Source: Candidatus Uhrbacteria bacterium
Lineage (GTDB): Bacteria; Patescibacteriota; Patescibacteriia; UBA9934; GWF2-40-263
Direction of reading: 5' to 3'
NCBI GenBank assembly: GCA_013204385.1
Contig: JABMNY010000019.1
Location: forward strand, 1 to 62,087
DNA length: 62,087 bases
Below the pieces are notes generated by a model. The model worked only from the letters and a program-made list of their open reading frames with translations, made no database searches and was not told the origin of the DNA. The translations under genes and the position numbers were made by a program. Position 1 is the stretch's first letter; each line of letters starts with the position of its first letter. Below are positions 279-58,667 of this stretch, in pieces.

Positions 279-638
279 CTAGTTGGAGTAGAGTTCGTCG
301 GGGTCAGGGAGGCGTCGATCTCCCCAGGATCCAGGCCAGCCGTTTGCGATGTCAGGTCCGTTCTCACGGAAAGACTGGAGCATCTCGAAGTTGTTGGCGA
401 GTTCCGTCAGGAATCGTCGCTTGCTGGGCTTGTCGAGGGTGATCCCCTCGAGCCAGTCGCTGATCTCGGAGTACATCCTACGGAGGGTGGGCTTGTTGAA
501 GCTGTCCGCAAGGATAGCCTGGTTTTCCTGGTTGCGAATGACGATACCGATCGACTTCTCCCCACGACTGAGAAAAACTTCTGCGAAGAAGGTACTCACT
601 GGGGAATTGTCGGATTCAATAGTGTTGAGATAGATCAC
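279..638 (-). CDS. hypothetical protein (~119 aa, ORFan-like)
   Basis: ORF-track 279..695; GTG start at 638 preceded by GGAGG and a TTGACA-17-TAGGTT promoter. Confidence 0.6.
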   Translation of the reverse strand: MIYLNTIESDNSPVSTFFAEVFLSRGEKSIGIVIRNQENQAILADSFNKPTLRRMYSEISDWLEGITLDKPSKRRFLTELANNFEMLQSFRENGPDIANGWPGSWGDRRLPDPDELYSN

Positions 639-694
639 TCTGCACTTCCTCCCTGTGTGTTGGTCAGGTCGCGAGCAGGACTCACGAACCAGCA

Positions 695-723
695 AACCTA
701 CAAGAATACCTAGGTTTTGTCAA
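695..723 (-). promoter_or_regulatory. sigma70-type promoter TTGACA-17-TAGGTT for the 279..638 gene
   Basis: Consensus -35, 17-nt spacer; overlaps folD stop. Confidence 0.6.
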
Positions 724-1552
724 TCTTCTGAAGAATATAGGCTTTTAAGATATTCACTAACAACATCGCAACCGTCATTGGGCCAACACCTCCTGGAACA
801 GGAGTAAGTGCGCCAGCAATCGGTTCGACAGATTCAAAATCAACGTCTCCAGAAAGTCCAGAATCCGTACGGGTTGTCCCAACATCAATCACAATGGCGC
901 CTGGTTTTACCATATTACCCGTGATCAACTTAGGAATTCCTTCAGCGACAATCAAGAGATCAGCTTCACGCGTATGGGTTTCAAGATCCCGATCTTCCGC
1001 TTGCACAACATTAACAGCTACATTCTCACTTTCAAGTAGAAGTTTCAGTGGCTCAGCAAAAAGCGGTGATGAGACAATAAGTGCCTTATTTGGAAAGGAT
1101 TCTTCTCCAACGGCTTCACGAATAAGGCGAACAACCCCTAAGGCAACAGCGGAAGAAATACAGGGTTTTCCAGTGCGCAATCGCTCGAGATTCTCAGGAT
1201 GAAATCCATCTACATCTTTAAGTGGATTGATTGCGGCAATAACAGTATCCGCACTTTGTGTTGGGAGGGGAAGCTGGACCAAGATGCCATGGATGTCTGT
1301 TCTTTTGTTTAGTTCCTCAACTTTCGTGATGAGATCTTCTTCCGGAGTCTCTGATGGGTACAAAAAGAGCTCAAATAGAATCCCAGCTTCTTCACAGGCA
1401 AGGCGTTTTAGGCTGACGTAGAGATGTGAGGCTTCGTCATTTCCAACCAAAATGACTCCCAGCCCAGGGTGGGTTGGAAGGGCTTGTATACGGGTCTTGA
1501 TCTTCTCACGAATGCGAAGGCCAAGCGCTTTTCCATCAAGGAGTTTTGCCAT
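710..1552 (-). CDS. folD: bifunctional methylenetetrahydrofolate dehydrogenase/cyclohydrolase
   Basis: LLDGK, ASHLYVSLK, GILVQLPLP, KDVDGFHP, VIDVG, TPVPGGVGPMTVAML motifs. Confidence 0.97.
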   Translation of the reverse strand: MAKLLDGKALGLRIREKIKTRIQALPTHPGLGVILVGNDEASHLYVSLKRLACEEAGILFELFLYPSETPEEDLITKVEELNKRTDIHGILVQLPLPTQSADTVIAAINPLKDVDGFHPENLERLRTGKPCISSAVALGVVRLIREAVGEESFPNKALIVSSPLFAEPLKLLLESENVAVNVVQAEDRDLETHTREADLLIVAEGIPKLITGNMVKPGAIVIDVGTTRTDSGLSGDVDFESVEPIAGALTPVPGGVGPMTVAMLLVNILKAYILQKIDKT

Positions 1553-1631
1553 AGATATCGGCTCGAATACTATCAGATATAAAGCTTTTTATCAATAAAA
1601 AATCCGAGGAGAGAGCCTCGGAGGTTCAGAT

Positions 1632-2546
1632 CTAGTCGTTCTGGAAGGTGATGCTACGTCGTTGGCACCAAGCGGCCAGATCCGGAATTCGAGATGCATG
1701 AATGATCAGCATTTCTCGTTCTGCGGTTGCGGTTGCTTTTGAAAGTGGTGGAAGGCGCTCCCACTTACTGATGGAGCCTTCTCCAGCATCCAGCATGAAG
1801 GTGAGAAAACCCAGACGGCGGTCCATGCCGATGATCGGGGTGTCGTCCCAGGGAGTGACGACAGATTGACGTAGAATCGTTCCGCCAACTTCACTCTTCC
1901 ATCGGCGGGCTTCAGAGAGGCCGATTGATCCGTTTGCTGTTTCCGCATCCATGAAGAGGTCTCCATCGATGATCTCTTGGACGAGCGAGGAATGCCGTCT
2001 TGGAAGCGAACGGAGTTGGAGATACTGTTCTGATAGAGGTCGGTTGTACCCTCCTCCCAACAGGACATCTTTGGTGTGTTCTCCGCGCCGAAGGAGTCGG
2101 TGGGTCTTGTCTGATCCAGGTCGATAGTAGTACATCTCTCCGGAGTTTGCGTCCCCAACACACACAGCGATGACGTCTGATCCGTGCACCAGACTGATCA
2201 TGCAACCCCAACCCGCTGATTGGTGGCGCTTGTAGGCGCTGGTCCCATCAATGGGATCTACGGTGAAGTAGATGAGTTCATCTGGGATGGTGCAGGCAAT
2301 GGCGAGATCACTTTCTTCGCTGATGATGCCGAAGTCCGGAAAATGCTCACGAAGAAGACTGATCACGAGGACTTCACACTCCCTGTCTGCAGGAGTGACC
2401 CAGTCCGGTCTACCGTCTGCCTTTGCGCCTTTCACCTCCGCTTCGACTTCGAAACAACGATCCAGTGCATGGTTCATGGCTCGTTTGCATGCTTCTCGCA
2501 TGACAAGCCCGATGTGATGTCCGTTGAACAAAAATTTCGCTTTCAT
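1632..2546 (-). CDS. inositol monophosphatase/CysQ (FIG) superfamily protein, divergent
   Basis: TPADRECE...GIISEE...VDPIDGT metal-binding motifs; start moved to MKAKF (GGAGG SD). Confidence 0.75.
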   Translation of the reverse strand: MKAKFLFNGHHIGLVMREACKRAMNHALDRCFEVEAEVKGAKADGRPDWVTPADRECEVLVISLLREHFPDFGIISEESDLAIACTIPDELIYFTVDPIDGTSAYKRHQSAGWGCMISLVHGSDVIAVCVGDANSGEMYYYRPGSDKTHRLLRRGEHTKDVLLGGGYNRPLSEQYLQLRSLPRRHSSLVQEIIDGDLFMDAETANGSIGLSEARRWKSEVGGTILRQSVVTPWDDTPIIGMDRRLGFLTFMLDAGEGSISKWERLPPLSKATATAEREMLIIHASRIPDLAAWCQRRSITFQND

Positions 2547-2578
2547 GTTTCCTCCTTCCACTGAAGTAGTGGCTGATG

Positions 2579-2607
2579 AATCTATCACGTGATATCCTGA
2601 ACGTCAA
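2579..2607 (-). promoter_or_regulatory. promoter TTGACG-17-TAGATT for IMPase-like gene
   Basis: Near-consensus hexamers, 17-nt spacer, TG extension. Confidence 0.6.
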
Positions 2608-2608
2608 T

Positions 2609-3205
2609 ATGAAACGACTCATTTTTGCGACGCATAATAGTGGAAAATTAATTGAGATGAGGCAACTCCTGCATGGAACACAGATTGAAGTATCGAGTGC
2701 TGACGAAGCAGGTGTGACAGAGGATGTTATTGAAGACGGTGTGACGTTTTCAGAGAACGCCCTTAAGAAAGCGCGATTCGTTGCTGAGCAAACAGGAGAC
2801 TGGGCGGTGGCGGACGATTCAGGGATCATGATTGATGCGCTTGATGGTCGTCCTGGAGTGTATACCGCACGATGGGCAGGAGAGGGAGCGAGTGATGACG
2901 AGTTGATTGCGCATACACTTGAAGAACTTAAAGACGTGAAAGAGGATCGGCGTGGTGCCTCGTTTCATTGTGTGGCTGCACTTGTTTCTCCTGAAGGGAA
3001 AGAATTTACGTTCGAGGGAGTTGTGAAAGGTCAGGTTGTTGAAGTCCCTCGTGGCGTGAATCGAGCAAAACTTCCGTACGATGTCCTCTTTCAACCAACG
3101 GGTTTCAATCTCACATTCGCTCAGATGTCCGACGAACAAAAAAATCACCTCAGCCATCGTGGTCTCGCGTTCGAAAAGCTGAAAGCATTTGTGAGATCAC
3201 TGTGA
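2609..3205 (+). CDS. rdgB: non-canonical purine NTP pyrophosphatase (RdgB/HAM1)
   Basis: ATHNSGK, ENALKKA, ADDSG, GRPGVYTAR, YDVLF, SHRG motifs; start moved to MKRLIF. Confidence 0.95.
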   Translation: MKRLIFATHNSGKLIEMRQLLHGTQIEVSSADEAGVTEDVIEDGVTFSENALKKARFVAEQTGDWAVADDSGIMIDALDGRPGVYTARWAGEGASDDELIAHTLEELKDVKEDRRGASFHCVAALVSPEGKEFTFEGVVKGQVVEVPRGVNRAKLPYDVLFQPTGFNLTFAQMSDEQKNHLSHRGLAFEKLKAFVRSL

Positions 3206-3206
3206 T

Positions 3207-3240
3207 AAAAAACACCCCAATGAAGGGGTGCTTTTTATTT
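3207..3240. terminator. bidirectional terminator between convergent rdgB and glyA
   Basis: A-run, CACCCC/GGGGTG stem, T-run. Confidence 0.75.
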
Positions 3241-4480: not shown

Positions 4481-4582
4481 AATGGTTGAAATAAAAACAT
4501 GAGTTAGCTCTGGGATTCATGTTTTTTATTACAACATAGGTTTATGAGTCAGGTGTGGGTTTATCCCCACTACAGTATCTCT

Positions 4583-4633
4583 ATTCTACGAGAAGGTTCC
4601 TCCATTGACAACGGGCCCTAAAATCGATAGGTT
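4583..4633. promoter_or_regulatory. back-to-back promoters: TTGTCA-17-TAGAAT (minus, glyA) and TTGACA-17-TAGGTT (plus, 4679 gene) with overlapping -35 boxes
   Basis: Hexamers at 4606-4611/4583-4588 (minus) and 4605-4610/4628-4633 (plus). Confidence 0.6.
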
Positions 4634-4678
4634 TATATGACCCTGCACATCCTGTGCGTCCGATAAAAGGAGGACCTC

Positions 4679-5938
4679 ATGCCACACCTCATATTCCCTC
4701 CAAGAAGTTCTGTTGTACAGATGAGGGGGGTGGGTTTTCGTGGTCAACGAATCACGGTAGCTACGCTTCCTGAGACGGCTACCGCATCGAGAATCGGTCA
4801 ATTGGTCTCTGGCGATCAGTTGGTTGTAAGTTCTTGTGGGTACTATGTTGGTCAAGTAACTCCTCTTTCGTATGTGGAGGAAGCTATCCATCACTCCGTC
4901 TTCGGTGTGATGGAACCATATTTCCGTTCCTCACACGATCCCGGAACAGATGGTTCGCGCATCCTCAAGGTTGGTGCTCACTTCCTGCTTGTTTGGGGAA
5001 GGGTACAGGGATACCCAACAGGAATTTGGTATGTGGCTCCAGAAGGGAGTCGCTTTCTTTACCCACTTGATCGGCTACTGATCTCTGTGGGGAGGCATGT
5101 TGACCGCACAATCATCGGCACATTGTTGACCGAACCAGGTCAACATTTCTATCTCACTTCGTGGGGTCTTTGGCCGGTAAGTGAGCGAGCTCGAGTGATC
5201 AGTGGTGGTGAGCGACTCTGTGTTCTCGAACGAATTCAAGGGTTGCAGTATTGCTACCAGGTTGGGGTGCTGGGAATTTCTCATTTTTTCCAGATAAACC
5301 CTCCGAAAGAACTGTCTGTTTCGAAGGCCGTTCCTTGGAACGAGAAGCTGTTCCTTTCAGTGACTCGATCAACTCAATCCTGGCTATCTGAGCCAGGACA
5401 ACCGTCCGCTGAGCCTTTTGGTGTTGACGGAACGATTCAAGAGATTTGGGTTTCTCCTAGAGGAAAAACGCTCCTGTTGTTGATTCATCCTCGTGGTACT
5501 ACGCAAGGCACACGTCGCCTTGTCATGAGTACGGGAAAGGTTCTGTATGAAGGAGTCTTTTCTGTCGATGTCCCAACCATAGCCTGGTCCAAAGATGAGT
5601 TGTCAGTGGCTGTGCAGATCAGTGAGTCCACTGACTCTGATCAAGTCGTGTCACTGCGCGTCGTTGGCTCCAACTGTGAGTGGAAGCTCCCACTAGGCAT
5701 TGAATGTCGCGAGATACTCCTCGGAGATGATGGATCGATCCTTGGATCGATCCTGCATGATGATCTTGGGTATACACCGATGTTTCGTGGATATCAGGGG
5801 ACACGGGGACTGTTTACATGGAATCTCCATCACGGTCCCGATGGTGCCATTGTCTGGTCTACGATCCAGGCTGATCAGATCTACACCTGGCTGTCTCAAG
5901 TGACGGGAGCGAATGCTCCTCGTCCTTCTCTGCACTGA
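4679..5938 (+). CDS. hypothetical protein (419 aa, beta-rich, possibly propeller-like)
   Basis: Long ORF with AAGGAGG SD, own promoter and terminator; no family recognised. Confidence 0.7.
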   Translation: MPHLIFPPRSSVVQMRGVGFRGQRITVATLPETATASRIGQLVSGDQLVVSSCGYYVGQVTPLSYVEEAIHHSVFGVMEPYFRSSHDPGTDGSRILKVGAHFLLVWGRVQGYPTGIWYVAPEGSRFLYPLDRLLISVGRHVDRTIIGTLLTEPGQHFYLTSWGLWPVSERARVISGGERLCVLERIQGLQYCYQVGVLGISHFFQINPPKELSVSKAVPWNEKLFLSVTRSTQSWLSEPGQPSAEPFGVDGTIQEIWVSPRGKTLLLLIHPRGTTQGTRRLVMSTGKVLYEGVFSVDVPTIAWSKDELSVAVQISESTDSDQVVSLRVVGSNCEWKLPLGIECREILLGDDGSILGSILHDDLGYTPMFRGYQGTRGLFTWNLHHGPDGAIVWSTIQADQIYTWLSQVTGANAPRPSLH

Positions 5939-5961
5939 CCATCTCTGGTTGGTGCTTTTTT
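5932..5961 (+). terminator. intrinsic terminator
   Basis: GCACTGACCA-TCTC-TGGTTGGTGC + T6. Confidence 0.7.
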
Positions 5962-6008
5962 CATAGATCATATCATTTTTTTCCAGTGATATGATAGACT
6001 GTTCACGT

Positions 6009-8338: not shown

Positions 8339-8344
8339 TGTTCT

Positions 8345-8692
8345 ATGCGAATTATATCCATCTTGGGCACAAACATGCCCTTAACCGACGCGATTAAGTC
8401 CCGTATTAACTCTCAAGTAGAGGTACTGGAAAAACTCACAAAAGACTTCGAGCCAGCCGCAGAACTTCGTGTGGAAGTAGGAAAATCCACAAAACATCAT
8501 CTAAAAGGCCCATTTTATAGAGCAGAGTTTCAGCTCAATATCCCAGGAAGTGAGTTGCGTGCCACAACCGAAGAAGAAGATTTATACCACGCCATTATCG
8601 TCGTGCGAGATCAGATTCGCAGACAATTAAAAAGTCACAAAGAAAAATTAAACGATAAACACAAGCGGGCTGCTCGACCAGACAAAAAATAA
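8345..8692 (+). CDS. hpf: ribosome hibernation promoting factor / RaiA (S30AE family)
   Basis: GTNMPLTDAIKS...EEDLYHAI...RQL pattern, short form. Confidence 0.85.
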   Translation: MRIISILGTNMPLTDAIKSRINSQVEVLEKLTKDFEPAAELRVEVGKSTKHHLKGPFYRAEFQLNIPGSELRATTEEEDLYHAIIVVRDQIRRQLKSHKEKLNDKHKRAARPDKK

Positions 8693-8726: not shown

Positions 8727-8820
8727 TGTTATGAACTTATACATTCGACCTAATGTTAGTATTAATATCGTCACTCAGTGTCGATATTCGGTGTCGATAT
8801 TCGGCCAGACAAAAAATAGT

Positions 8821-8844
8821 GAAAACGGGGGCGACCCCGTTTTC
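8821..8844. terminator. terminator downstream of the 8888 gene
   Basis: GAAAACGGGG-GCGA-CCCCGTTTTC perfect inverted repeat. Confidence 0.75.
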
Positions 8845-8887
8845 AAATAGAAAAGCACCGTGCGTTATCGGTGCTGATGTAGGTCGG

Positions 8888-9736
8888 CTACTGTTCCTGC
8901 TTGGAACGTGCCGAAGCGTTGCGACGGCGGGTGAGATCGATGGGATCTTCGAGGGACTTATTGACCTCGGCGTGAGCATGATCCTCGCTTTGGGCGTCTT
9001 GCAAGGTATTGGTGACCGCCCTCATGAGGGCTGTGTATTGGTCGTCGAGATCGGTGTTTGTCATGCCCGTGAGACTGCGGTCGAGCATGACTGCCTCCAG
9101 GGCGTCGAGCTGTTCCCGACAATTCGACTCGAGACTCTGGAGTCTGGCATGCCTGGAAACGAGTGCGTCGAAGCGCTCGCGGACGATTTTTTGCGCCATG
9201 GACCAGTTCGACATATTCTCGGGTAACTTCTCGATCAGGGGTCGCAATTGCTCAAGACCCTTTGTGTGCAGAGCGATCTTCGCGACGAGCCTGGGGAGTG
9301 CCCCAGTTGCCAGGTCGAGTAGTTGTTGTCGCAGAGGGTCGTCGACGGGAGTACTTTTGGCCAGATCCATGACACGTTTGATCTGTTCGTCGTCGAGATT
9401 GGTCTGAGGACTTACTGGTTCACTCTCGGACATCTTGATTCCGATCATGAGCGTGATACAGGTGATGATTAAGGCGCATACGCCCCATAAGGATCCAAAC
9501 TCGCCGACCCAGATCCCAGTGGGGATGCAGATCATGAGCATGCTACCCAAGAGAGCGGAGCTCTGTCTCTTCGATTCTGGTTTATGTATTCCGATGAGGA
9601 AACTCACAATACACAACAGAATGAGTGGCGGAACCGCTTCCCAGCCGAAGCCTGTGAAGTAGTAGCCAGGATGGAGCATTTGCTCAGTTGTATCAGCAAT
9701 TGGTGCTATCGACGGATGAAGTGGTGGAAAGGGCAT
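8888..9736 (-). CDS. hypothetical membrane protein: N-terminal TM helices plus long helical/coiled-coil C-terminus
   Basis: ORF-track 8888..9802, but its TTG start lies inside the -35 box; ATG 9736 has a GGAG SD. Confidence 0.7.
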   Translation of the reverse strand: MPFPPLHPSIAPIADTTEQMLHPGYYFTGFGWEAVPPLILLCIVSFLIGIHKPESKRQSSALLGSMLMICIPTGIWVGEFGSLWGVCALIITCITLMIGIKMSESEPVSPQTNLDDEQIKRVMDLAKSTPVDDPLRQQLLDLATGALPRLVAKIALHTKGLEQLRPLIEKLPENMSNWSMAQKIVRERFDALVSRHARLQSLESNCREQLDALEAVMLDRSLTGMTNTDLDDQYTALMRAVTNTLQDAQSEDHAHAEVNKSLEDPIDLTRRRNASARSKQEQ

Positions 9737-9773
9737 TTCTTCTCCATGTCCAGAGATATTCTCAGGATGAAGT

Positions 9774-9802
9774 AACATATGGGAAATAATTCCATATGTC
9801 AA
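9774..9802 (-). promoter_or_regulatory. promoter TTGACA-17-TATGTT overlapped by inverted repeat ACATATGG-N9-CCATATGT
   Basis: Read directly from sequence; repeat arms 9775-9782 and 9792-9799. Confidence 0.6.
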
Positions 9803-14962: not shown

Positions 14963-15020
14963 TAAAACACTGGGAATCCCCAGTGTTTTTAGAAATGAAA
15001 AGAGCCCAGTATATGGGCTC
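14963..15020. terminator. two adjacent hairpins terminating convergent genes
   Basis: TAAAACACTGGG-AATC-CCCAGTGTTTT(TA) at 14963-14991 and AAAA-GAGCCCA/TGGGCTC at ~14998-15020. Confidence 0.7.
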
Positions 15021-16308
15021 AGATGAGAGCGATCTGTCCGACAAGTCCGTCAGAAATTGCGTGAATGGTTCTTGTCCTAGCGAGGAGCTTCCGGACAATG
15101 TACTGGTGAACATTGTCTGGGATTGCAATGATCCCTCCGCCGGAAATTCCTGTATCAAAATCGGGCATGAGGGCATGTACGTTGATCCCACTATGTGTGG
15201 TGCTAATAGCGATCACTCGTCGAGTGATCTGAATGACGGCACCAGCTTGAAAAGCGGCTCGAATCATGAATGAGCCATAGTCTGGATGAGGATCATTCTG
15301 CCAGAAAAGAATCTGTTCTGGATTGAAACGCGTGTTTGTCTGATTGACTGCGTACTCAATTCCACCAGATCCAGCATAAAGGAGCCATCTTGCGATGTCT
15401 GTTGATGTTAGACATGCAGTACCTTTACACAAGAATGCTCGATTGACAGCAGGTGTTGTTACAAGAGTATTCTTGAGTGATTGTATGGGTGCTCCATGAC
15501 ATCGAACATGGTTCGGAGATGGACGTATCTGAACGAGGTGCCAGACCTCAGGAGTATCTGGGTGGATGATCAACTCAAGTTGAACTCCGAACGAAATCCC
15601 CAATGCGTTGACGTGTTCCCAGAGTTCCTGAGCGAGACGCAGAAGAGGGAAGGTGAGACATGATCCCGTGAAGAGTTCTCCTGCACAATGATCAAGAAGG
15701 AATGTACCGCTGATGGGATCAATTACTTCATGACGACCCTCGTGATCTCTGGTGGCAGAAGTAAAAGTGCGTATTCCATCAGTACGCAATTCTTCTCTTC
15801 CGGTTGATATCCGGATGATGGGTCGCTTAAGGATCTGACTGAAAGCGATATCCACAACGATACCAATCCCGTCGATGAATTTCTGAAGGACTACTGGGTG
15901 GCGTCCATTAGAAATTTCTCTGGCATGATTCATGACTCGTGATGTGTGAAGAATTGTTCGGGAGTGTTGTTCTCCACTGTTGCCACTAAGCCAATCTTCC
16001 CAAAAGGTTGAGCTACGAACCTTGATCCTGGATTCTTCTACCTGGATCCAATCTGTGAATTTAGGTGTTGGATTGTGCCATGGTGTGGTGGAAGGAAGTG
16101 AAATCCAGGAGGGGACGCACAGATGATTCGATCCACGAGCCAGTCGATCACAGATTGAAAGGCCGAGTGCTTTGCCTCCTTCTAAATAGAGCTTGTCGAT
16201 AAGACTTCTCGTGCCCAAGTTGTCCACGAGCTCCCCTGGGAGCTGATCCAGCACGATCGCTGGATTTTGCTGGTCATAGACCCATCCATCTGTGCTGAAT
16301 ACTGGCAT
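15019..16308 (-). CDS. PEP/pyruvate-binding (PPDK N-terminal ATP-grasp-like) protein with putative C-terminal phosphohistidine domain
   Basis: EGGKALGL, VVLQKFI, LVQIRP, STTHSGI, ISDGLVGQI motifs; GGAG SD. Confidence 0.55.
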   Translation of the reverse strand: MPVFSTDGWVYDQQNPAIVLDQLPGELVDNLGTRSLIDKLYLEGGKALGLSICDRLARGSNHLCVPSWISLPSTTPWHNPTPKFTDWIQVEESRIKVRSSTFWEDWLSGNSGEQHSRTILHTSRVMNHAREISNGRHPVVLQKFIDGIGIVVDIAFSQILKRPIIRISTGREELRTDGIRTFTSATRDHEGRHEVIDPISGTFLLDHCAGELFTGSCLTFPLLRLAQELWEHVNALGISFGVQLELIIHPDTPEVWHLVQIRPSPNHVRCHGAPIQSLKNTLVTTPAVNRAFLCKGTACLTSTDIARWLLYAGSGGIEYAVNQTNTRFNPEQILFWQNDPHPDYGSFMIRAAFQAGAVIQITRRVIAISTTHSGINVHALMPDFDTGISGGGIIAIPDNVHQYIVRKLLARTRTIHAISDGLVGQIALI

Positions 16309-16421
16309 GATTGCTCCATGGGTGAGCCTTCACTCAATCATAACTCCAAAGCCTCGTCAACGGTTGTCCACTTGCGAGAGAGGTCGTAATCCCTTACACT
16401 ATCGCCGATATATATTTCTCT

Positions 16422-41119: not shown

Positions 41120-41204
41120 TTGACAATAAAGGCATGGATCAGTACAATACCGGCGCCTTAAATCTCCAGTATTTCTTGCCGTTTTTAGCAAACAGTGCTA
41201 GAAT
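41120..41204 (+). promoter_or_regulatory. tandem promoters of the infA-rps operon: TTGACA-17-TACAAT (41120-41148) and TTGCCG-17-TAGAAT (41176-41204)
   Basis: Hexamers and spacers read from sequence. Confidence 0.65.
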
Positions 41205-41221
41205 TCTGTCGTTATTTTACT

Positions 41222-41443
41222 ATGGCAAAAACGACAAAAGATTTCATTGAGATGCGGGGTACAGTAGAAGAACTTCTACCTTCCGCAAAGTTCAAAATAA
41301 AACTAGAAAATGGGCAGATCATCACAGGCCACTTGTCTGGGAAGATGCGCAAGTTTCGAATCAGAATCCTTCCGGGTGATGATGTGAAGCTTGAAATAAG
41401 CCCGTACGACCTTACAAAGGGTCGTGTAGTCTATCGATTTTAG
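41222..41443 (+). CDS. infA: translation initiation factor IF-1
   Basis: [30 protein letters not shown]; start moved to MAKTT. Confidence 0.97.
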
Positions 41444-41480
41444 CAAAACGCCATCGATCGTTTCGGTGACGTTTATGATT

Positions 41481-41594
41481 ATGAAAGTACGATCATCAGC
41501 GAAAAAAATTTGTCGCGATTGTAAAGTTCTTCGACGAGAAGGTCGCGTCGTTGTAATTTGTAAAAATCCGCGTCATAAACAACGTCAAGGTTAA
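41481..41594 (+). CDS. rpmJ: 50S ribosomal protein L36 (not in ORF track)
   Basis: [37 protein letters not shown], Zn-binding form. Confidence 0.97.
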
Positions 41595-41598
41595 TACT

Positions 41599-41985
41599 AT
41601 GGCACGAATTGCAGGAGTTACTATTCCATCTGATAAAAGAATCGTCATTGCTCTGACCTATGTTTATGGTGTCGGACTTACGACATCAAAAAAGATTCTT
41701 GCTCAAACTGGTGTCGATGAAAATATTCGCACAAAAGATTTGACAGATGATCAAGTAAACAGTTTACGAGCTCTTCTTGAGAAAAGTTACCGACTTGAAG
41801 GTGACCTTCGTCGAGATAAGTTATCAAACATCAAACGCTTAAAGGAAATTGGATCCTATCGAGGTTCTCGACATGGAAAAGGTTTGCCTTCACGAGGGCA
41901 GCGAACTAAGTCCAATTCACGAACTGTCCGTGGAAATACCCGTAAAACTACAGGTAGCGGACGTAGAACTCTTACAAAGACCTAA
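41599..41985 (+). CDS. rpsM: 30S ribosomal protein S13
   Basis: [33 protein letters not shown]. Confidence 0.98.
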
Positions 41986-41990
41986 TCTCT

Positions 41991-42389
41991 ATGGCTGTTC
42001 AGAGCAAATCAAAATCACGAGCAAAAAACAAAGTTGCCCGACAAGTGTCACAAGGGTGTGCTTATATTCAATCTACGTATAACAACACGATTGTTACACT
42101 CACGGATTTGAATGGTAATGCGCTCGGTTGGTCTAGTGCAGGAAACTGTGGATTTAAAGGACCGAAGAAATCAACTCCCTACGCTGCAAGTATTGTTGTA
42201 AAGACAGCTGCAGATCGAGTAAAAGAAACAGGTCTCAAAGAAATTAACGTTTTTGTAACAGGAGTTGGATCAGGTCGTGATTCTGCAATCCGTGCACTTA
42301 ATGCAAATGGATTCCAGGTTCTTTCTATTAAGGACACAACCCCTCTTCCACATAACGGCTGTCGGCAGAAAAAGCCACGACGCGTATAG
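41991..42389 (+). CDS. rpsK: 30S ribosomal protein S11
   Basis: STYNNTIV, KKSTPYAA, DTTPLPHNGCR. Confidence 0.98.
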   Translation: MAVQSKSKSRAKNKVARQVSQGCAYIQSTYNNTIVTLTDLNGNALGWSSAGNCGFKGPKKSTPYAASIVVKTAADRVKETGLKEINVFVTGVGSGRDSAIRALNANGFQVLSIKDTTPLPHNGCRQKKPRRV

Positions 42390-42392
42390 AAT

Positions 42393-43007
42393 ATGGCAAA
42401 ACATCGAACTCCCATTGTTAAACTCTCCCGCCGTTTAGGTATTACATTAGGTAAGGAAAAATACGTCCGACGACGTCCTTATCCACCTGGTGTGCATGGT
42501 CCTAAACAAGCACGTAGTCGCAAACGACTTTCTTCTTTTGGTGAACAGCTCATCGAAAAACAGAAGGCAAAAGCGATCTACGGTGTTCTTGAGAGACAGT
42601 TTTCTGGATATTTTCAGAAAGCATCTCGAAAAGAAGGGGATACTTCTGAAAATCTCGTACGATTACTTGAACTCAGACTTGATAACGTTGTTTACCGACT
42701 TGGATGGGCACGAACACGTCGTCAGTCTCGACAGATGGTGAATCACGGATTCATTCAGGTAAACGCTGGTCGTGTTGATATTCCTTCTTATAGTGTCTCA
42801 GTCGGTGATATAATCACGATTAAGCCATCAAAAGTAGAGAAGGGTATCGTCAAAGTCATTCCAGAAGCAATGAACTTAGGAACACTTCCAGGATGGATTT
42901 CTCGAGATGATAAAGCGACGTCTGGGAAAATTACCTCTCTTCCAGAGGGCGAGGAGTTGAAACAAGGTTTTGACCCAACACTCATCGTAGAGTTCTACTC
43001 ACGATAA
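42393..43007 (+). CDS. rpsD: 30S ribosomal protein S4
   Basis: QL.EKQK, LELRLDNVVYRLG, RQMVNHG, IVEFYSR. Confidence 0.98.
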   Translation: MAKHRTPIVKLSRRLGITLGKEKYVRRRPYPPGVHGPKQARSRKRLSSFGEQLIEKQKAKAIYGVLERQFSGYFQKASRKEGDTSENLVRLLELRLDNVVYRLGWARTRRQSRQMVNHGFIQVNAGRVDIPSYSVSVGDIITIKPSKVEKGIVKVIPEAMNLGTLPGWISRDDKATSGKITSLPEGEELKQGFDPTLIVEFYSR

Positions 43008-43030
43008 TCATCAATTTTAATCTTTGCAGT

Positions 43031-43783
43031 ATGGAGAACATTCTTCTTCCATCACGTATTCAATACGAGGATGGTGAGCGCGCCAATGAAGGCGTACTGA
43101 CAATCGATCCTTGTTTCTATGGATACGGTACAACACTTGGAAATGCGCTTAGACGTGTTCTCTTGTCTACACTTCCAGGAGCTGCTGTTACAGCAGTGAA
43201 GATCAAAGGAGTTAATCATGAGTTTCAATCCGTGAAAGGTGTAAAGGAAGATGCTCTTGAAATGATTCTGAACATTAAGTCACTTCGACTAAAATGTTTC
43301 TCAGACGAACCTGTAAAGCTCAAACTAAATGTCTCAGGGGCAAAAGTTGTCACCGCAGCAGATATTGAGCCAAATGCAGACGTCGAGATCATCAATACAG
43401 ATCTCGTTCTTGGGACAATTACAGAAGCTGATGCAAGTTTAGACATGGAGTTTACTGTACGTCGAGGACGTGGTTACACCACAAGTGAAGATCGGGCAAA
43501 CGAAGAAAATAGAGACCTTGGAACTATTTCAATCGATGCACTCTTCTCTCCAGTACGAAATGTTGGATACAGAGTAGAAAATACACGCGTTGGAGAAATC
43601 ACCAACTATGATCGATTGATCATGAACATCGAAACCGATGGAACCATCAGTCCAAAGGAAGCGGTCGAGGAATCTGCAAAAATCCTTATTGACTACTTCT
43701 CAATTTTGACAAATAATCAGACGTCATCCATTCCAGCTGAATCATTTGATAAAGCTGAGTCGGTTGAAACTTCGGAGGAATAG
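43031..43783 (+). CDS. rpoA: RNA polymerase alpha subunit (NTD only)
   Basis: GYGTTLGNALRRVLLS, HEF..V.GVKED, GRGY, DALFSPV, YDRL; no alpha-CTD. Confidence 0.96.
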   Translation: MENILLPSRIQYEDGERANEGVLTIDPCFYGYGTTLGNALRRVLLSTLPGAAVTAVKIKGVNHEFQSVKGVKEDALEMILNIKSLRLKCFSDEPVKLKLNVSGAKVVTAADIEPNADVEIINTDLVLGTITEADASLDMEFTVRRGRGYTTSEDRANEENRDLGTISIDALFSPVRNVGYRVENTRVGEITNYDRLIMNIETDGTISPKEAVEESAKILIDYFSILTNNQTSSIPAESFDKAESVETSEE

Positions 43784-43788
43784 AATAT

Positions 43789-44139
43789 ATGCGTCATCGA
43801 AAGAAAGGAACAATTCTAGGAAGAGAGAAGGCCCCTCGAGAGGCTTTGCTTCGAAACCTTGCTGCAAGTATTATTTTGCATGAGAAGGTAAAGACAACAG
43901 AAGCAAAGGCAAAAGCGGTTAAGCCTCTTGTTGAGAAAGCAATTACGTCTGGAAAATCACAGACCCTAGCTTCTCGACGAAAGCTTCTTAGCTTTTTCTA
44001 TACAGATCATGCAGTAAACAAAATTTTCGATGTGCTCGCTGCACGATATGAAAATCGTCCAGGTGGATACACCCGAATTATTAAACTTGGACATCGGAAG
44101 AACGATGGAGCAGATATCGTTCAGATTGAACTCGTTTAG
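43789..44139 (+). CDS. rplQ: 50S ribosomal protein L17
   Basis: MRHRK, TTEAKAK, RPGGYTRI. Confidence 0.98.
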   Translation: MRHRKKGTILGREKAPREALLRNLAASIILHEKVKTTEAKAKAVKPLVEKAITSGKSQTLASRRKLLSFFYTDHAVNKIFDVLAARYENRPGGYTRIIKLGHRKNDGADIVQIELV

Positions 44140-44149
44140 CTATAAATGT

Positions 44150-44500
44150 ATGTCACGAGAAATCCACACAATTGATGCAGAAGGGAAGGCTCCAGGACGC
44201 CTCGCAACAGAGATTGCGAGACTTCTTATTGGTAAGCATAAACCAACATATACTCCTCATATTGATGATGGAGACCATGTTCAGGTATTGAATGCTGGAA
44301 AAATGGAGGTTACCGGAAAAAAGATGACTCAAAAGGTCTATTATCATCATACAGAATATGCAAAAGGTCTTCGTATAAAGAAGATGAGCAAAATTTGGAG
44401 TGATGATCCAGGTGAAGTTTTAAGACGTGCGGTATCACGCATGCTTCCTAAAAACAAGCACCGAAATGAGCGTCATAAACGACTTGTCGTAACGAACTAG
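44150..44500 (+). CDS. rplM: 50S ribosomal protein L13
   Basis: IDAEG..PGRLA, GKHKPTYTPH.D.GD, AVSRMLPKN; start moved to MSREI. Confidence 0.97.
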   Translation: MSREIHTIDAEGKAPGRLATEIARLLIGKHKPTYTPHIDDGDHVQVLNAGKMEVTGKKMTQKVYYHHTEYAKGLRIKKMSKIWSDDPGEVLRRAVSRMLPKNKHRNERHKRLVVTN

Positions 44501-44505
44501 CTGAT

Positions 44506-44910
44506 ATGAGTACCAACGAAACACGCTATATTGAAGCTGTCGGACGACGAAAACAAGCGGTTGCACGCGTTCGTCTTCATCATGCTGGAACAGGATCGAT
44601 CAAAATTGATGATCGTGAACTCGAAGAATATCTTCCTATTGAAATCATGCAACAGGCTGTAAAAGCCCCGCTTCGTGAAACAGGAATGGATAATGTATTT
44701 GATATCACCGTTCACGTTAACGGAGGTGGAATTCATGGGCAAGCTGATGCGATTCGACTCGGAATTACACGTGCGCTTATGGAATTCAATCCTGAATTTC
44801 GCGCAACGCTTAAGAAAGCTGGATTTGTCACACGAGATCCTCGTGTACGTGAGCGAAAAAAGTTTGGAAAGAAGTCTGCTCGCCGATCCCCACAGTGGTC
44901 AAAGCGATAG
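44506..44910 (+). CDS. rpsI: 30S ribosomal protein S9
   Basis: GRRKQAVARV, GGG.HGQA.AIR, TRDPRVRERKK.G, QWSKR. Confidence 0.98.
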   Translation: MSTNETRYIEAVGRRKQAVARVRLHHAGTGSIKIDDRELEEYLPIEIMQQAVKAPLRETGMDNVFDITVHVNGGGIHGQADAIRLGITRALMEFNPEFRATLKKAGFVTRDPRVRERKKFGKKSARRSPQWSKR

Positions 44911-44925
44911 TCACAAAATTGATAC

Positions 44926-44950
44926 AAACCAGGGCAATTGCCCTGGTTTT
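44926..44950. terminator. terminator after rpsI
   Basis: AAACCAGGGC-AATT-GCCCTGGTTTT. Confidence 0.8.
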
Positions 44951-44977
44951 GACTTATTCGGCTGAAAATGATTAAAT
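44949..44977 (+). promoter_or_regulatory. promoter TTGACT-17-TTAAAT for the 44997 gene
   Basis: Read from sequence; followed by AAGGAGGT SD. Confidence 0.5.
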
Positions 44978-44996
44978 TCGCGCGAAGGAGGTGTAG

Positions 44997-45821
44997 ATGA
45001 ACTCAGAACTGCTCTACAGTCCAAAGGCCAATAGAGGCCTTCTCTGGACTCTTCGAGATGATGACAAAACAAATTACCCTCTCCCAGGGTATGATTGGCT
45101 GTTGGCGGAAGATGATGTACTCAAGGCACCGTGGGGTGATCATGGGGCTCAGACTCCTGTCACATTCGCGTTGACGCTGACATTCGAAGGCATTAGGCGA
45201 ACCAATAATGAGCGATCCAACATGGGATGTTTCTCTCTGGTTGTCTATCCCAAGGATGCGGCGCTGATCAAAGCTGAGCGTGAAAGAATCGGGAATTCTG
45301 ACTCACCAAGGGATTCGATCAAAAAAGTCATCATCATTCTGTCGAAAATGCCGATGTATCCTGGTGCTCAGTTGACCCTGATGGGTGCACACCACGGAAC
45401 AGCTGGAACGCGACTCTATCTCAGCTTCTCGGCCACTGCGGGATGGGGTGCCATTGTGTCACGACGAGATGCAGAGATCGCTCGTCATCATCTGAACCAT
45501 CCATGGTACGATCGGTTTTGGAATCGTCTCATGAGACGTCCTGCAGTTTTGCCCCCCGAAGCCTTGAACCTCGATCCACCAGAGGATCCTTGGATGGAGG
45601 AAAAGAATCGCAAAGCAATCCTCGCACTTATCGAAGGGAAGGGCTTGGGAGGTGGACCTCTGAGATTGGCTGGTGAAAGCCTGATGCGAAAGCTCTGCAG
45701 AGATCCTCGGATCGAACCAGTAGCATCGAACTACCACCAGACGGGTCCTATGACCATCCTGGGTTCCAGACAGGACGCACCCTCTCGGATGCCTTCCAGT
45801 CTCACCATCGTTCAGATGTAG
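44997..45821 (+). CDS. hypothetical protein (274 aa, ORFan-like)
   Basis: AAGGAGGTG SD, own promoter and terminator; no family recognised. Confidence 0.7.
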   Translation: MNSELLYSPKANRGLLWTLRDDDKTNYPLPGYDWLLAEDDVLKAPWGDHGAQTPVTFALTLTFEGIRRTNNERSNMGCFSLVVYPKDAALIKAERERIGNSDSPRDSIKKVIIILSKMPMYPGAQLTLMGAHHGTAGTRLYLSFSATAGWGAIVSRRDAEIARHHLNHPWYDRFWNRLMRRPAVLPPEALNLDPPEDPWMEEKNRKAILALIEGKGLGGGPLRLAGESLMRKLCRDPRIEPVASNYHQTGPMTILGSRQDAPSRMPSSLTIVQM

Positions 45822-45842
45822 AATACTTCTTCCTTGACGCAC

Positions 45843-45870
45843 CGGCGGAACGCTTCCGCCGCTTTTTTTT
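45843..45870 (+). terminator. intrinsic terminator
   Basis: CGGCGGAA-CGC-TTCCGCCG + T-run. Confidence 0.8.
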
Positions 45871-52432: not shown

Positions 52433-52434
52433 AC

Positions 52435-52911: not shown

Positions 52912-52926
52912 AAGGCAACTAAATTA

Positions 52927-55541: not shown

Positions 55542-55542
55542 A

Positions 55543-56958
55543 TTAGAAGCTTGCTACTTCGATATCTCCTGTATCAAAGGCGGTGTTTACGGATAGAGGT
55601 TCGCCGAGAGGATGTTCAAGGACTGCTCGTTCTGAAGTCCAAACAACCTGATTCCAATCCCACCCATAGGTATAGAACGTGAGTTCATCTTCGATGTGAC
55701 GTCGCATTCCCTCGGAGACAACAAACACATCAGGGGAGCCTGGAACGGCGATCAATGTTCCATCTTGAAATAAGACGGGGGTCGTTCGCTCAAAGGCGGC
55801 AAGATCTTCAGGGGCCACGGGGGTGACAGCTGTATCTGCAAATCGATTCGTGAGAATTTCACGAGAATAAATAGGGTGCTTTTCAGAGTCCTTTACATAG
55901 AAGATTCCACCCGTTGTGTTGTCTTGTAAGAGAGCCCCTTGCATGTAGGTTGAAGCAATGGTTAGAGGTTCACCTTCTGCGTAAGTCTCGAGGTCCTCCC
56001 AAGTTACATCAACAACTTCATCTGTTGAAAACCCGAGAGAACGGAATGCTTCCGTAGATGTAAACCCACGTCGTGTATCATCCACGATCAAATAAATGGT
56101 GCCCGTTGGAGCTCGTAAGAGGGAATAGTTTGGAAAACTAATAGGGGCTCCGATTGGATAGTTCTCAAGCGTTGAGATACTCACCTGAACCACGATGTTT
56201 GGATTGAATCTGGAGTAAAACGCTGTGCGAGAGGTGATTGGGCGACGCTCACCGTGCTGAATAAGCCAAATACCACCGTCCTCTTTGTTTTGCAAAAGAC
56301 TTCCGCTCACATACTCATACGTAAACCATCGATCCCAGATACGCGCAAAGTTTTCATTCCCGTGTAAGTGAGGAGTGTAGGTGTAAAGTGCGGCGGTTGC
56401 GTTATTCACGGGAGTCACATATGTCCCATCAATCGTTACCTGGATTCCAGGTCCCATTCCTGTTTCCGTGAAACCACGTGATTCAAGATCATCTAAGTAG
56501 GATGTTCGAATCCGCTTTGCCGCATAGTAAATCTGATTTCCAAATCCCTTAAACTTTTGAATACGAGGATCGTCCTTGGAACAATCATCACACACCGCAT
56601 ATCCCATTGCCCAAGCAAGTTGTCTCTCAGAAGGGGAGTCATCCTCCACTAGACTCTGTTCGCGTTGAAGAAGGACTAAGAGAAAGCGAGGACTCAACTC
56701 AAACTCTTGTGCAGCATTAAAGATAATCTCGGCAGCACTACGCTCAACACCATTCACATCAGGTCCACGGTAGCTTGAAAGGCCACCACGAATCAAAAAG
56801 CGCTCTACATCCAAAAGCGACATGCTGTAAATATCCAACATTTCTGCGTCAGAAACAAGATACGCCGGATTTGTATAAAAATCCTCCGAAGCAATAGCAC
56901 CCGCCAAAGGCTCCAAAACAAGAATCAAAGAAATCAATACAAAAAAGACGTGTTTCAT
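55543..56958 (-). CDS. secreted protein: conserved N-terminal helical domain plus four ~60-aa repeats
   Basis: Signal peptide; LLQREQSL..AMGY..GFGNQI..NATAALYTYTPH; repeats G.L......IyLi....Rr.i.s...f. Confidence 0.7.
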   Translation of the reverse strand: MKHVFFVLISLILVLEPLAGAIASEDFYTNPAYLVSDAEMLDIYSMSLLDVERFLIRGGLSSYRGPDVNGVERSAAEIIFNAAQEFELSPRFLLVLLQREQSLVEDDSPSERQLAWAMGYAVCDDCSKDDPRIQKFKGFGNQIYYAAKRIRTSYLDDLESRGFTETGMGPGIQVTIDGTYVTPVNNATAALYTYTPHLHGNENFARIWDRWFTYEYVSGSLLQNKEDGGIWLIQHGERRPITSRTAFYSRFNPNIVVQVSISTLENYPIGAPISFPNYSLLRAPTGTIYLIVDDTRRGFTSTEAFRSLGFSTDEVVDVTWEDLETYAEGEPLTIASTYMQGALLQDNTTGGIFYVKDSEKHPIYSREILTNRFADTAVTPVAPEDLAAFERTTPVLFQDGTLIAVPGSPDVFVVSEGMRRHIEDELTFYTYGWDWNQVVWTSERAVLEHPLGEPLSVNTAFDTGDIEVASF

Positions 56959-57006
56959 AGTGAGAGTATTGTATCAAAATTGAAGGTTTGGAGAAAGAAA
57001 AGTATC

Positions 57007-57150
57007 TTACGGTGTTAGTCGGTTTATAAGTGGGGAGCTTTGAATTCCTGGAACAGGAGGTTTCGGTGGAAAACTCGCATCAGACAAGTTTGAGCAACCT
57101 GCACCAAGAAAAAGAAATAAGGAAAGGAAAAGAAGGGTGAGGTATTTCAT
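57007..57150 (-). CDS. 47-aa putative lipoprotein (not in ORF track)
   Basis: MKYLTLLFLSLFLFLGAGC-SNLSDASFPPKPPVPGIQSSPLINRLTP*; lipobox GAGC. Confidence 0.6.
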   Translation of the reverse strand: MKYLTLLFLSLFLFLGAGCSNLSDASFPPKPPVPGIQSSPLINRLTP

Positions 57151-57234
57151 GAAATTATGTTTGTGAAAAGACTCGTTTCATCGTGAGTACAGTATAGCTA
57201 ATATACCAATATTCGTAATGATAAGTTTTTGAAT

Positions 57235-57266
57235 TAAAAAAGCTGTAAACGGCGTGCGTTTACAGC
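57235..57266 (-). terminator. terminator of SPFH gene
   Basis: GCTGTAAACG-5-CGTTTACAGC with T-run on minus strand. Confidence 0.75.
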
Positions 57267-57287
57267 AGGGGTGGGAGGCGCGTTGCC

Positions 57288-58589
57288 TCAGTTGGCGGGC
57301 TGGTCGAGACCGAAGAGCATCTGGGTGCCCTGGGGCAGGATGGAGGTTGGGGTCTGCCCGTTCCACTTGTTCGCCGCGACGAGTCGCGCCTCGGCGTTCT
57401 TGTTCTCGATCTCGAGCCGGATCTTGGAGCTCCAGGCTTCCTTGGCCCGGGCGAACTCCTCTGCCATCGCGCGCTCGTTCTGTGCGATGCCGAGCAAGCG
57501 TTCGTTCTCCTGCTCCTGCGAGATCTTCTCGTTCTCGCGCTGCTTGATGGCCATCTCAGCCACGTAGGCGTTGTCGATCGACTGCTGGATCTGGGGGTTG
57601 TCGTAGCTCAGGCCGTCGGCGTAGCCCAGGTTGACGATTGAGATGCCGCGCTCACTGAATGCCTTGGAGGCGGTCTCCGCACACTCGGCGAAGATCTTGA
57701 CCTTGGAGTCCTTGCAGCCGGCCTCCAGGACCTGACCCTCATCGCCCAGCTTGGCTTCGAGTGGGAGGTCGCCGAATTTCTGCCCGACGCAGGTCTTGAC
57801 GAAGGAACGGACGTTCTCGTCGACCACTTCGGGAAGTGGCTTGCCGGCGTAGTAGTAGAGGAACTTGGCCGCATTGTCCTCCTCGATCATTGCTGTGATG
57901 GTTGCACCGATCGAGAATCCGATTGAGTCCTTCGACTCCACAGCCAGTGCATCATCCTTGGTCGACGTGCCTGTGGTGGATTCTTCGGTCCACTCACGTG
58001 TGACGGGGGTGCGATCCACCTTCACGACGCGCATGGTGGGAACGTACTTGTATGCCCACCACATGCGACCGGTCGAGACCTGTCGCTGGGGCAGGCTGAC
58101 ACGCTTGGCACCGACCTTGTTCTGGTTGAGGTAGTCCTCGCTCATGAATTTTCCTTGGGCGTCCGTGTTGCCCTCGAGCGGGACCAGGAAGGCGGTCTCG
58201 TTGGTGTCGATCTCCTCGAGGACTTCGACCTTTGCGGGGCCACAGGCGCTCATCGTCAGGACGGAGAGCAGGACCAGCAGGGTACTGACGGAGGCTGGAG
58301 GGAGCTCCCGGAACTTCTTGACCAGGTAGGTGCCCCAGACGATGGCCAGGAGCACGATGAGGCTCCAGATGGCGATGTTGGGGATGAGGTTCCCCGTGGA
58401 GATCTCGCGAGCGGCCGCGTAGGTGGCGGGGTCGTCGCTGAGCTGGCCTACGGCGACGCTTCCTTCCAGGGGGCCGCGGACGGCGTCGTAGATCTTGCTG
58501 AAGATCAGCCACGCCGTGCATGACAGGAAGGTCACGACAGCCCTCCATCCGATCTTGGGGGAGGAGGGGGTTTTGGTCTCGTCACTCAT
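57288..58589 (-). CDS. SPFH/band-7-like membrane protein with extra N-terminal TMs; GC-rich
   Basis: Hydrophobic N-terminus; V.SKDSIGFSIG..ITA; VRSFV; GISIVNLG...L.YDNPQIQQSID; coiled coil; GAGGTG SD. Confidence 0.7.
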   Translation of the reverse strand: MSDETKTPSSPKIGWRAVVTFLSCTAWLIFSKIYDAVRGPLEGSVAVGQLSDDPATYAAAREISTGNLIPNIAIWSLIVLLAIVWGTYLVKKFRELPPASVSTLLVLLSVLTMSACGPAKVEVLEEIDTNETAFLVPLEGNTDAQGKFMSEDYLNQNKVGAKRVSLPQRQVSTGRMWWAYKYVPTMRVVKVDRTPVTREWTEESTTGTSTKDDALAVESKDSIGFSIGATITAMIEEDNAAKFLYYYAGKPLPEVVDENVRSFVKTCVGQKFGDLPLEAKLGDEGQVLEAGCKDSKVKIFAECAETASKAFSERGISIVNLGYADGLSYDNPQIQQSIDNAYVAEMAIKQRENEKISQEQENERLLGIAQNERAMAEEFARAKEAWSSKIRLEIENKNAEARLVAANKWNGQTPTSILPQGTQMLFGLDQPAN

Positions 58590-58638
58590 CAAAGCACCTC
58601 AGTGTGATTTCGCCCAAGCAGAATGCAAGGGACGCAAA

Positions 58639-58667
58639 AAGATATCAAATAGAAGGAATTTTGTCAA
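58639..58667 (-). promoter_or_regulatory. promoter TTGACA-17-TATCTT for SPFH gene
   Basis: Read from sequence. Confidence 0.6.

Follow-up and report, generated by a model that had tools for sequence, protein, structure and literature searches.

Seven Shine-Dalgarno-led genes on a Candidatus Uhrbacteria contig as probable members of a second, lineage-conserved expression class

The 62-kb stretch of DNA analyzed here (62,087 nt of contig JABMNY010000019.1, referred to as the window) belongs to an ultra-small groundwater bacterium, Candidatus Uhrbacteria, of the candidate phyla radiation (CPR, Patescibacteria). The window is rich in housekeeping genes and carries folD, glyA, murC, murB, hpf, secA, secDF and alaS, the run infA-rpsM-rpsK-rpsD-rpoA-rplQ-rplM-rpsI, an O-antigen-type glycosyltransferase cluster and fmt-def-priA. 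Exactly seven of its about 58 genes (about 12%) are led by a Shine-Dalgarno (SD) motif, and these seven are the subject of this study. They were labelled c1 to c7, the last being the gene at 15019-16308 on the minus strand. Start codons in the window were curated, and public gene calls made independently largely agree with them. Neither Rfam nor tRNA scans gave a match in this DNA. The nearest public relatives of the glyA neighbourhood are metagenome-assembled genomes of Candidatus Uhrbacteria, whose serine hydroxymethyltransferase (SHMT, glyA) is 91-70% identical to that of the window. The seven units are laid out as follows.

c1, 186-723, minus strand: promoter TTGACA-17-TAGGTT at 695-723; leader of roughly 50 nt with a 5' hairpin; SD GGGAGG within 645-655; coding sequence 279-638 with a GTG start, 119 amino acids (aa); terminator-like hairpin 186-205.
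c2, 1597-2607, minus strand: promoter TTGACG-17-TAGATT at 2579-2607; leader hairpin; SD AAGGAGG; coding sequence 1632-2546, 304 aa; terminator 1597-1622.
c3, 4605-5961, plus strand: promoter TTGACA-17-TAGGTT at 4605-4633; leader hairpin; SD AAAGGAGG; coding sequence 4679-5938, 419 aa; terminator 5932-5961.
c4, 8820-9802, minus strand: promoter TTGACA-17-TATGTT at 9774-9802; 5' hairpin; SD GGAG; coding sequence 8888-9736, 282 aa; terminators 8851-8875 and 8820-8845.
c7, 14998-16360, minus strand: box TTGACG-N12-TATGAT at 16337-16360; SD GGAG; coding sequence 15019-16308, 429 aa; terminator 14998-15020.
c5, 44949-45870, plus strand: promoter TTGACT-17-TTAAAT at 44949-44977, directly 3' of the rpsI terminator (44929-44946); SD AAGGAGGTG; coding sequence 44997-45821, 274 aa; terminator 45843-45870.
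c6, 57236-58667, minus strand: promoter TTGACA-17-TATCTT at 58639-58667; leader of roughly 43 nt; SD GAGGTG; coding sequence 57288-58589, 433 aa, with a GC content at third codon positions (GC3) of 0.85; terminator 57236-57266.

Six of the seven units have a promoter of the form TTGAC(A/G/T), 17 nt and TAnnnT or TTAAAT, and each of these six carries GGAG(G) or GAGGTG located 5-10 nt before its start. An earlier reading of the sequence, hereafter the first-pass annotation, had placed these six promoters with their exact 17-nt spacer and the SDs, and all were recovered where it had put them. The leaders measure 12-50 nt with start sites placed by motif, and four of them have at their 5' end a small hairpin that does not occlude the SD, in agreement with the hairpins noted at that stage. 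Clear terminators follow at least six of the seven genes, more than the four listed before. The gene c7 had been credited with an SD and a terminator and only a weak promoter; the first two stand, while its promoter position is taken by TTGACG-N12-TATGAT, a box of odd spacing that is nevertheless kept in the orthologues. Members of the c7 family share an upstream block (window positions 16337-16385; relatives' loci L087, L089 and L090) which reads GCAAGTGGACAA, followed by TTGAC(G/A)-N12-(T/A)ATGAT. As a normal sigma-70 promoter needs a spacer longer than 12 nt, this block may be a regulator-binding site.

A search of the window for TTGAC-N18-TANNNT returned seven matches where 2.2 were expected, a number that was reached in one of 100 shuffles. 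Five of these matches belong to candidate units and the other two head the infA-rpsM (41120) and def-fmt (52921) operons. The -35 box alone is therefore not exclusive to the SD-led class.

The remaining genes of the window look different. A GGAG or GAGG 4-mer lies at SD distance in only 2 of 51 of them, and both of these genes have T at position -1 and low GC3, so that they look like chance matches; the statement that the neighbouring core genes lack an SD is borne out. T stands at -1 in 42 of 49 non-SD genes, a share that is 16% when every ATG of the window is counted (p = 1e-26), and in none of the seven SD-led genes. GC3 is 0.60 in the SD-led genes and 0.36 in the others (p = 2e-7), and the GC content of fourfold-degenerate sites is 0.55 versus 0.34, with intergenic DNA at 0.42. 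Individual units range in GC3 from 0.43 to 0.85 against 0.36 ± 0.06, which is atypical in a composition test for imported DNA; the same offset is present in orthologues of distant relatives. An AT-rich island with an OLD nuclease and a gene of a type I restriction-modification (R-M) system, in contrast, are written in the SD-less, T(-1) style. These islands are the clearest imported DNA in the window, yet they are not SD-led. A look-up of contigs encoding homologues of the OLD nuclease gave no match.

We next consider whether the same split is found in relatives, where starts were anchored by alignment to the window proteins. SD-like 4-mers are rare at the starts of core genes (folD 0/22, glyA 1/29, murB 0/20, hpf 0/19, murC 3/19, secA 2/9) and common at the anchored starts of candidate orthologues (8/9 for c2 and 7/7 for c3). 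An initial SD census, based on 5-mers and several candidate starts per gene, was discarded because about 60 of 103 flags were expected by chance, and was replaced by 6-mers and homology-anchored starts. In the resulting census of open reading frames (ORFs) from 27 loci, which required an SD of at least 6 nt and included an internal-start control, 4 of 168 core ORFs were flagged compared with 5.6 expected by chance, against 26 of 236 rare ORFs, for which chance predicts 6. GC content is higher in those rare ORFs that were flagged (p = 0.0007).

T at -1 is found in 79 of 80 operon-head and 43 of 48 operon-internal core orthologues. By comparison, among 51 glyA loci that do not belong to the Uhrbacteria-type set (of which 49 are from non-CPR bacteria or archaea), T(-1) occurs in 5 of 51 and an SD-like motif in 25 of 51. 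The motif TANNNT lies 5-13 nt before the ATG in 46 of 77 operon-head orthologues, compared with 6% in a random control, and has its peak at 9 nt. Its concentration 7-10 nt before operon-head ATGs suggests that these mRNAs may be leaderless or nearly so. The core promoters of this leaderless type have a near-consensus -10 box, most commonly TATAAT, with a good -35 box in only 4 of 46 and an extended TG in 13 of 46. Among the SD-led genes and their orthologues, 24 of 30 carry a -35 box matching TTGACA in at least five of six positions at a spacer of 16-18 nt, nearly always 17 (random control 2%). In these promoters the -35 box is mostly perfect and the -10 box weak (TAGGTT, TAGTTT, TATCTT), and they lie 18-56 nt before the start. 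The base at -1 of SD-flagged ORFs in relatives is C in 28 of 46 and T in 7 of 46.

A logo from 31 genes and orthologues reads (A/T)GGAGG(T)(G), with a modal spacing of 5-7 nt from the start. The conservation of GGAGGT(G) at this distance points to a retained anti-SD, which the SD-led mRNAs would use in the canonical manner. When metagenome contigs were compared with the 3' end of a 16S rRNA from an unrelated locus, many matched through CCTCCT and none could be assigned to this organism; one of the matching contigs, of 19.7 kb, has a depth of 29, compared with about 36-38 for the organism of the window. Taken together, promoter, leader, SD, -1 base and synonymous GC content differ between the two sets of genes, the two sets of signals exclude each other, and the orthologues keep these traits. 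The proposal of a coherent class with its own route of initiation has in this respect held up.

The ribosomal operon of the window provides the contrast.

41120-44910, plus strand: infA-rpsM-rpsK-rpsD-rpoA-rplQ-rplM-rpsI operon, with no functional SD and with T at -1 of every ATG.

Within 41120-41222, a perfect TTGACA-17-TACAAT promoter lies about 70 nt upstream of infA and a second box, TAGAAT, 16 nt before its ATG, with no SD. Judged by these motifs, infA would have a leadered but SD-less core transcript.

In relatives, five of the seven units (c2, c3, c5, c7 and probably c1) occupy the site that they have in the window; promoter and SD are both kept there in the first four, and an SD in c1. 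The gene c2 lies between glyA/ham1 and folD in nine relatives (36-57% identity), out of about 22 sites, and TTGAC(A/G)-17-TAnnnT is conserved in eight of the nine orthologues. Likewise, c3 lies between murC and glyA in nine relatives (24-45% identity; 9 of about 19 sites), and a perfect TTGACA-17 promoter precedes all eight of eight orthologues. Orthologues of both genes keep their GC excess over the flanks. Pairwise divergence of c2 and c3 tracks that of the flanking core genes (Mantel r of 0.75, a value attained in 8 of 5000 permutations, and of 0.69, attained in 7), while the mean identity of 0.29-0.40, compared with 0.61-0.65 for the core genes, shows that they evolve faster. A single homologue of c5 (39% identity) was found among 5.8 billion proteins; it also follows rplM-rpsI and has an identical layout, with terminator, TTGACT-17-TTAAAT and GGAGGTG. 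The family of c7 has 36 members, every named one of which is labelled Patescibacteria or CPR, and three of three homologues examined, with identities of 56, 43 and 32%, occupy the corresponding site in divergent orientation to secD. The gene c1 is probably syntenic as well, its one homologue (25% identity; pairwise E 5e-9) lying directly after folD in locus L028. In metagenome run X1 the assembly graph splits at the slot of c1 (170-648), the path with c1 having a depth of 18 and a second contig of similar length a depth of 13. This second contig matches the flanks only; part of the population therefore has in this slot an allele that is different or has strongly diverged.

The other two units have a different history. 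Only four homologues of c4 were found among 1.84 billion representatives. Two of them, 40% identical, follow polA instead of lying between hpf and secA, and share the promoter, the SD and a covarying hairpin (CCTGAG/CTCAGG versus CCCGAG/CTCGGG in the two homologues). No homologue of c4 was detected in 27 related glyA loci, at least nine of which span the hpf-secA gap. The presence of c4 homologues elsewhere with the complete unit conserved indicates that the whole unit was relocated. None of the 22 relatives compared carries c6 upstream of its conserved g471-ligB-priA-def-fmt operon. In one of them the flanking gene is 87% identical, and homology ends about 40 nt ahead of that gene's start. 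The family to which c6 belongs is large and includes homologues from a phage-like contig and from Bacillus phage G (partial matches in INPHARED, which was searched with c6 only), and it alone among the seven matches PHROGs (phrog_200). IMG/VR scans with c3, c6 and c7 gave no matches. Among the seven units, c6 is the only clear recent import. A 10-nt direct repeat, CATCAGACAA (57078 and 58686), was considered as its target-site duplication and rejected, as three exact 10-mer repeats occur in the 1.8-kb region, about the chance estimate. No integrase or transposase families were found among the scanned neighbours of the units, and the flanking repeats of the units are 10-nt repeats at chance level.

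The stretch from 56998 to 62087, compared with loci L093 and L094, contains upstream of that conserved operon c6, a DUF4440 gene, a glyoxalase gene, a 192-aa ORF and hsdM, all unrelated to the flank of the closest relative; it is a variable region or a synteny break beside a type I R-M system. Within it, an ORF on the minus strand at 58599-58970 is probably not a gene, given that, of 12 differences between strains in runs X1-X4, 10 affect the third codon position of an overlapping plus-strand ORF, 58742-59137. The latter encodes the DUF4440 protein and probably begins at the ATG in position 58773, a start with T at -1. A further observation concerns glyA: set against loci L001-L023, SHMT of the four loci L025-L028 is only 56-58% identical and 14 residues longer. 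As the flanking murC and folD are as close as elsewhere (up to 70%), this suggests that glyA was replaced in part of the lineage.

Relatives also carry SD-led genes that the window lacks. Three consecutive SD-led, slightly GC-richer ORFs of about 350-590 aa lie between murB and murC in loci L005, L007 and L023, and are an example of multi-gene members of the SD-led class. Since other SD-led, GC-richer ORFs fill gaps between the same core genes in relatives, the class appears to turn over. In summary, these are fast-evolving and mostly lineage-restricted genes, prone to gain and loss, most of which (c2, c3, c5, c7 and probably c1) have been inherited vertically at fixed sites.

With respect to their products, the class is functionally mixed. 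The N-terminal half of c2 resembles inositol monophosphatase, c3 is beta-propeller-like (AlphaFold2 predicted local distance difference test score, pLDDT, of 85, with matches to propellers), and c7 has an ATP-grasp fold (pLDDT 89) whose nearest matches are D-Ala-D-Ala ligase and the ATP domain of rifampin phosphotransferase. While c6 is an SPFH/Band-7 membrane protein and c4 a membrane protein with a coiled coil, no family could be assigned to c1 and c5. The idea that the units are spurious ORFs in GC-rich DNA was rejected in view of homologues, conserved coding frames and confident fold models. At c4 (8888-9736, minus strand), a public gene call had taken an antisense ORF of 157 aa (8753-9226, plus strand) instead; homologues and frame-specific conservation show that c4 is the genuine one of the two. 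A few starts, such as those of hpf and secF, likewise seem to be misplaced by public callers and could be fixed by the T(-1) rule.

We consider it likely that the seven genes are the members, within the window, of a second expression class that is conserved in the lineage of Candidatus Uhrbacteria, and that they are mostly not recent imports. An SD-led unit would be monocistronic, its promoter being of the sigma-70 type and combining a strong -35 box with a -10 box that is weak and rich in G and T (TTGACA-17-TAGGTT-like). Its mRNA would have a leader of 12-50 nt, often with a 5' hairpin, and end at an intrinsic terminator. Translation would begin by pairing of the anti-SD with an SD of the form (A/T)GGAGG(T), 5-7 nt from the start, with a -1 base that is usually C and in the window never T, and the synonymous sites of these genes are GC-rich. 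The majority, comprising the core genes and the AT-rich defence islands, do without an SD. Their operon heads have a -10 box close to consensus at a distance of 7-10 nt from the ATG, which would give leaderless or nearly leaderless mRNAs, and an almost invariant T at -1 marks head and operon-internal genes alike. The two classes may be regulated separately. A number of points weigh against this reading. Transcription start sites and leader lengths are predictions from motifs, and the gene-start census covers the window (about 58 genes) and 49 loci from relatives, not whole genomes. About half of the Parcubacteria have no anti-SD (Tsurumaki et al., 2022; PMC9297842). The reading does not account for the GC3 excess of 0.1-0.4, which persists in vertically inherited genes of every lineage examined, and c6, c4 and the polymorphism at c1 show that some members do move.

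The first-pass annotation had regarded the genes as plug-in cassettes supplied horizontally by phages or mobile elements, inserted singly and keeping the signals of their donors. This fits c6, with its absence from all 22 sites, its GC3 of 0.85 and its phage-like homologues, and it would account for the relocated c4 unit, for the two alleles of the c1 slot in one population, for the SD-led, GC-richer ORFs in the same core-gene gaps of relatives and for the patchy presence of c2 and c3. As a general statement it finds no support, since most of the genes are syntenic and vertically inherited. The absence from relatives' syntenic sites which the annotation had proposed to look for was found only for c6 (0/22) and c4, while c2, c3, c5 (1/1), c7 (3/3) and probably c1 are in place, with conserved promoter and SD sequences and, for c2 and c3, a divergence that follows the core. 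Similarly, phage homologues were found for c6 only; PHROGs had no match for the others, and IMG/VR was empty for c3 and c7. The lack of integrases, insertion sequence ends and target duplications that had been reported for these genes is consistent with our scans and likewise speaks against mobility, and the obvious imports, the islands with the OLD nuclease and the type I R-M system, are written without SDs and with T at -1. The cassette view is already contradicted for four to five of the seven genes, and we regard it as improbable. An older foreign origin, in which SD-using donors contributed the genes before Uhrbacteria diversified and the SD and GC-rich codons are frozen donor traits, would explain why composition and signals look foreign but old, and the families of c2 and c6 are widespread outside CPR. 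On the other hand, c3, c4, c5 and c7 have no detectable homologues outside Patescibacteria-type contigs, and neutral amelioration should have erased the GC3 offset at 24-40% protein identity, whereas it persists in every lineage examined; we give this origin only a slim chance.

Two further explanations concern the promoters and the choice of genes. If an alternative sigma factor or an activator defined the class, the TTGACA-17-TAGGTT-type promoter would mark a separate programme and the SD would be incidental. The combination of a perfect -35 with an atypical -10 box in 24 of 30 class members, compared with 4 of 46 core leaderless-type promoters, and the different conserved box of c7 would agree with such a regulon. 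However, TTGACA-17-TAnnnT is the ordinary consensus of the primary sigma factor and is shared by the infA-rpsM and def-fmt core operons, which makes this explanation very unlikely. It could also be argued that nothing is special about these genes, that is, that they are ordinary monocistronic genes and that selection exaggerates the contrast. The enrichment of the motifs is indeed circular because the genes were picked by these motifs, and genomes with both leaderless and SD-led genes are known, as described in the account of PMC6028130. Nevertheless, traits outside the selection (-1 base, GC3, fourfold GC and evolutionary rate) also separate the classes, and the split is kept in orthologues and in the unbiased ORF census, so that we find this scarcely credible.

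An extension of our preferred reading, the second conserved expression class, is that one Uhrbacteria-type cell holds two near-orthogonal expression codes, with the minority switched as a translational regulon and its codon usage maintained by selection. The majority would use promoters with only a -10 box, leaderless or reinitiating mRNAs and a four-base start, UAUG, read with A37 of the initiator tRNA. The minority code, with a strong -35 box, a leader with a 5' hairpin, an SD, C at -1 and GC-rich codons, would be reserved for fast-evolving, lineage-specific enzymes and membrane proteins. The switch could be anti-SD availability or a subpopulation of ribosomes, by analogy with the bS21-dependent use of SDs in Flavobacteria. 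We put this forward as a tentative and rather unlikely proposal.

The U(-1)-A37 interaction has a precedent, as a quadruplet pairing with the initiator tRNA by which a U before the AUG favours initiation, with a minor effect in Escherichia coli (Esposito et al., 2003; Hollerer and Jeschek, 2023; PMC10018350). Such pairing would explain the T(-1) rule and may be its basis here. Unlike the small statistical U(-1) effect in E. coli, T(-1) is nearly obligatory (90-99%) in the non-SD genes of this lineage and is avoided in the SD-led ones.

Several known systems resemble parts of this arrangement. Genomes of group C in the GeneMarkS-2 classification, such as those of Mycobacterium, Streptomyces and Deinococcus, combine leaderless with SD-led genes (Lomsadze et al., 2018; PMC6028130). 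As far as that account of the group goes, the likeness lies in a -10 box placed a few nt ahead of the start in genes that are first in their operon and in a second gene set with SD and leader. Operon-internal genes use SDs there, in contrast to the present case (murB 0/20; the ribosomal protein genes of the window have no functional-looking SD). By the same description, the SD is not limited, as it is here, to about 12% of the genes with their own composition, promoter type and evolutionary rate, and the near-invariant T(-1) is not among the group C features set out in it. Non-SD genomes of the Bacteroidota type are represented in PMC6028130 by Bacteroides ovatus, which has about 3% SD-led genes despite a standard anti-SD. 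Measured against the outline given for it, an SD-less majority with few canonical SDs is shared with Uhrbacteria, whereas the majority signal here is T(-1) with leaderless starts and not an A-rich motif, and the SD minority is GC-rich, lineage-specific and monocistronic.

The SD-less core genes are also a feature of Parcubacteria without an anti-SD, which belong to the same superphylum; unlike in those, SDs are by all appearances still used here. Sequestration of the anti-SD is known for Bacteroidota. Genomic islets and integron cassettes are likewise single genes of atypical composition between core genes with a patchy distribution among relatives, but the units described here have no integrase, attachment sites or flanking repeats, and most are syntenic and vertically inherited. 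Integron cassettes generally lack a promoter of their own, whereas every unit here has one.

Our literature search found no paper describing this two-style split in CPR. What sets it apart is an SD minority with distinct promoter, -1 base, codons and evolutionary rate, together with SD-less operon-internal genes and a near-obligatory T(-1) elsewhere. A large part of bacterial diversity belongs to CPR, most members of which cannot be grown alone, and knowledge of their transcription and translation initiation is largely indirect. If the two classes are real, a simple rule (SD and a base other than T at -1, versus T at -1) would improve the calling of gene starts, in a window where public gene callers mis-called c4 and several starts. 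The finding would also caution against taking GC-rich, SD-led genes for recent horizontal transfers, and it would flag the lineage-specific genes that are the best candidates for separate regulation, for instance in connection with life on a host.

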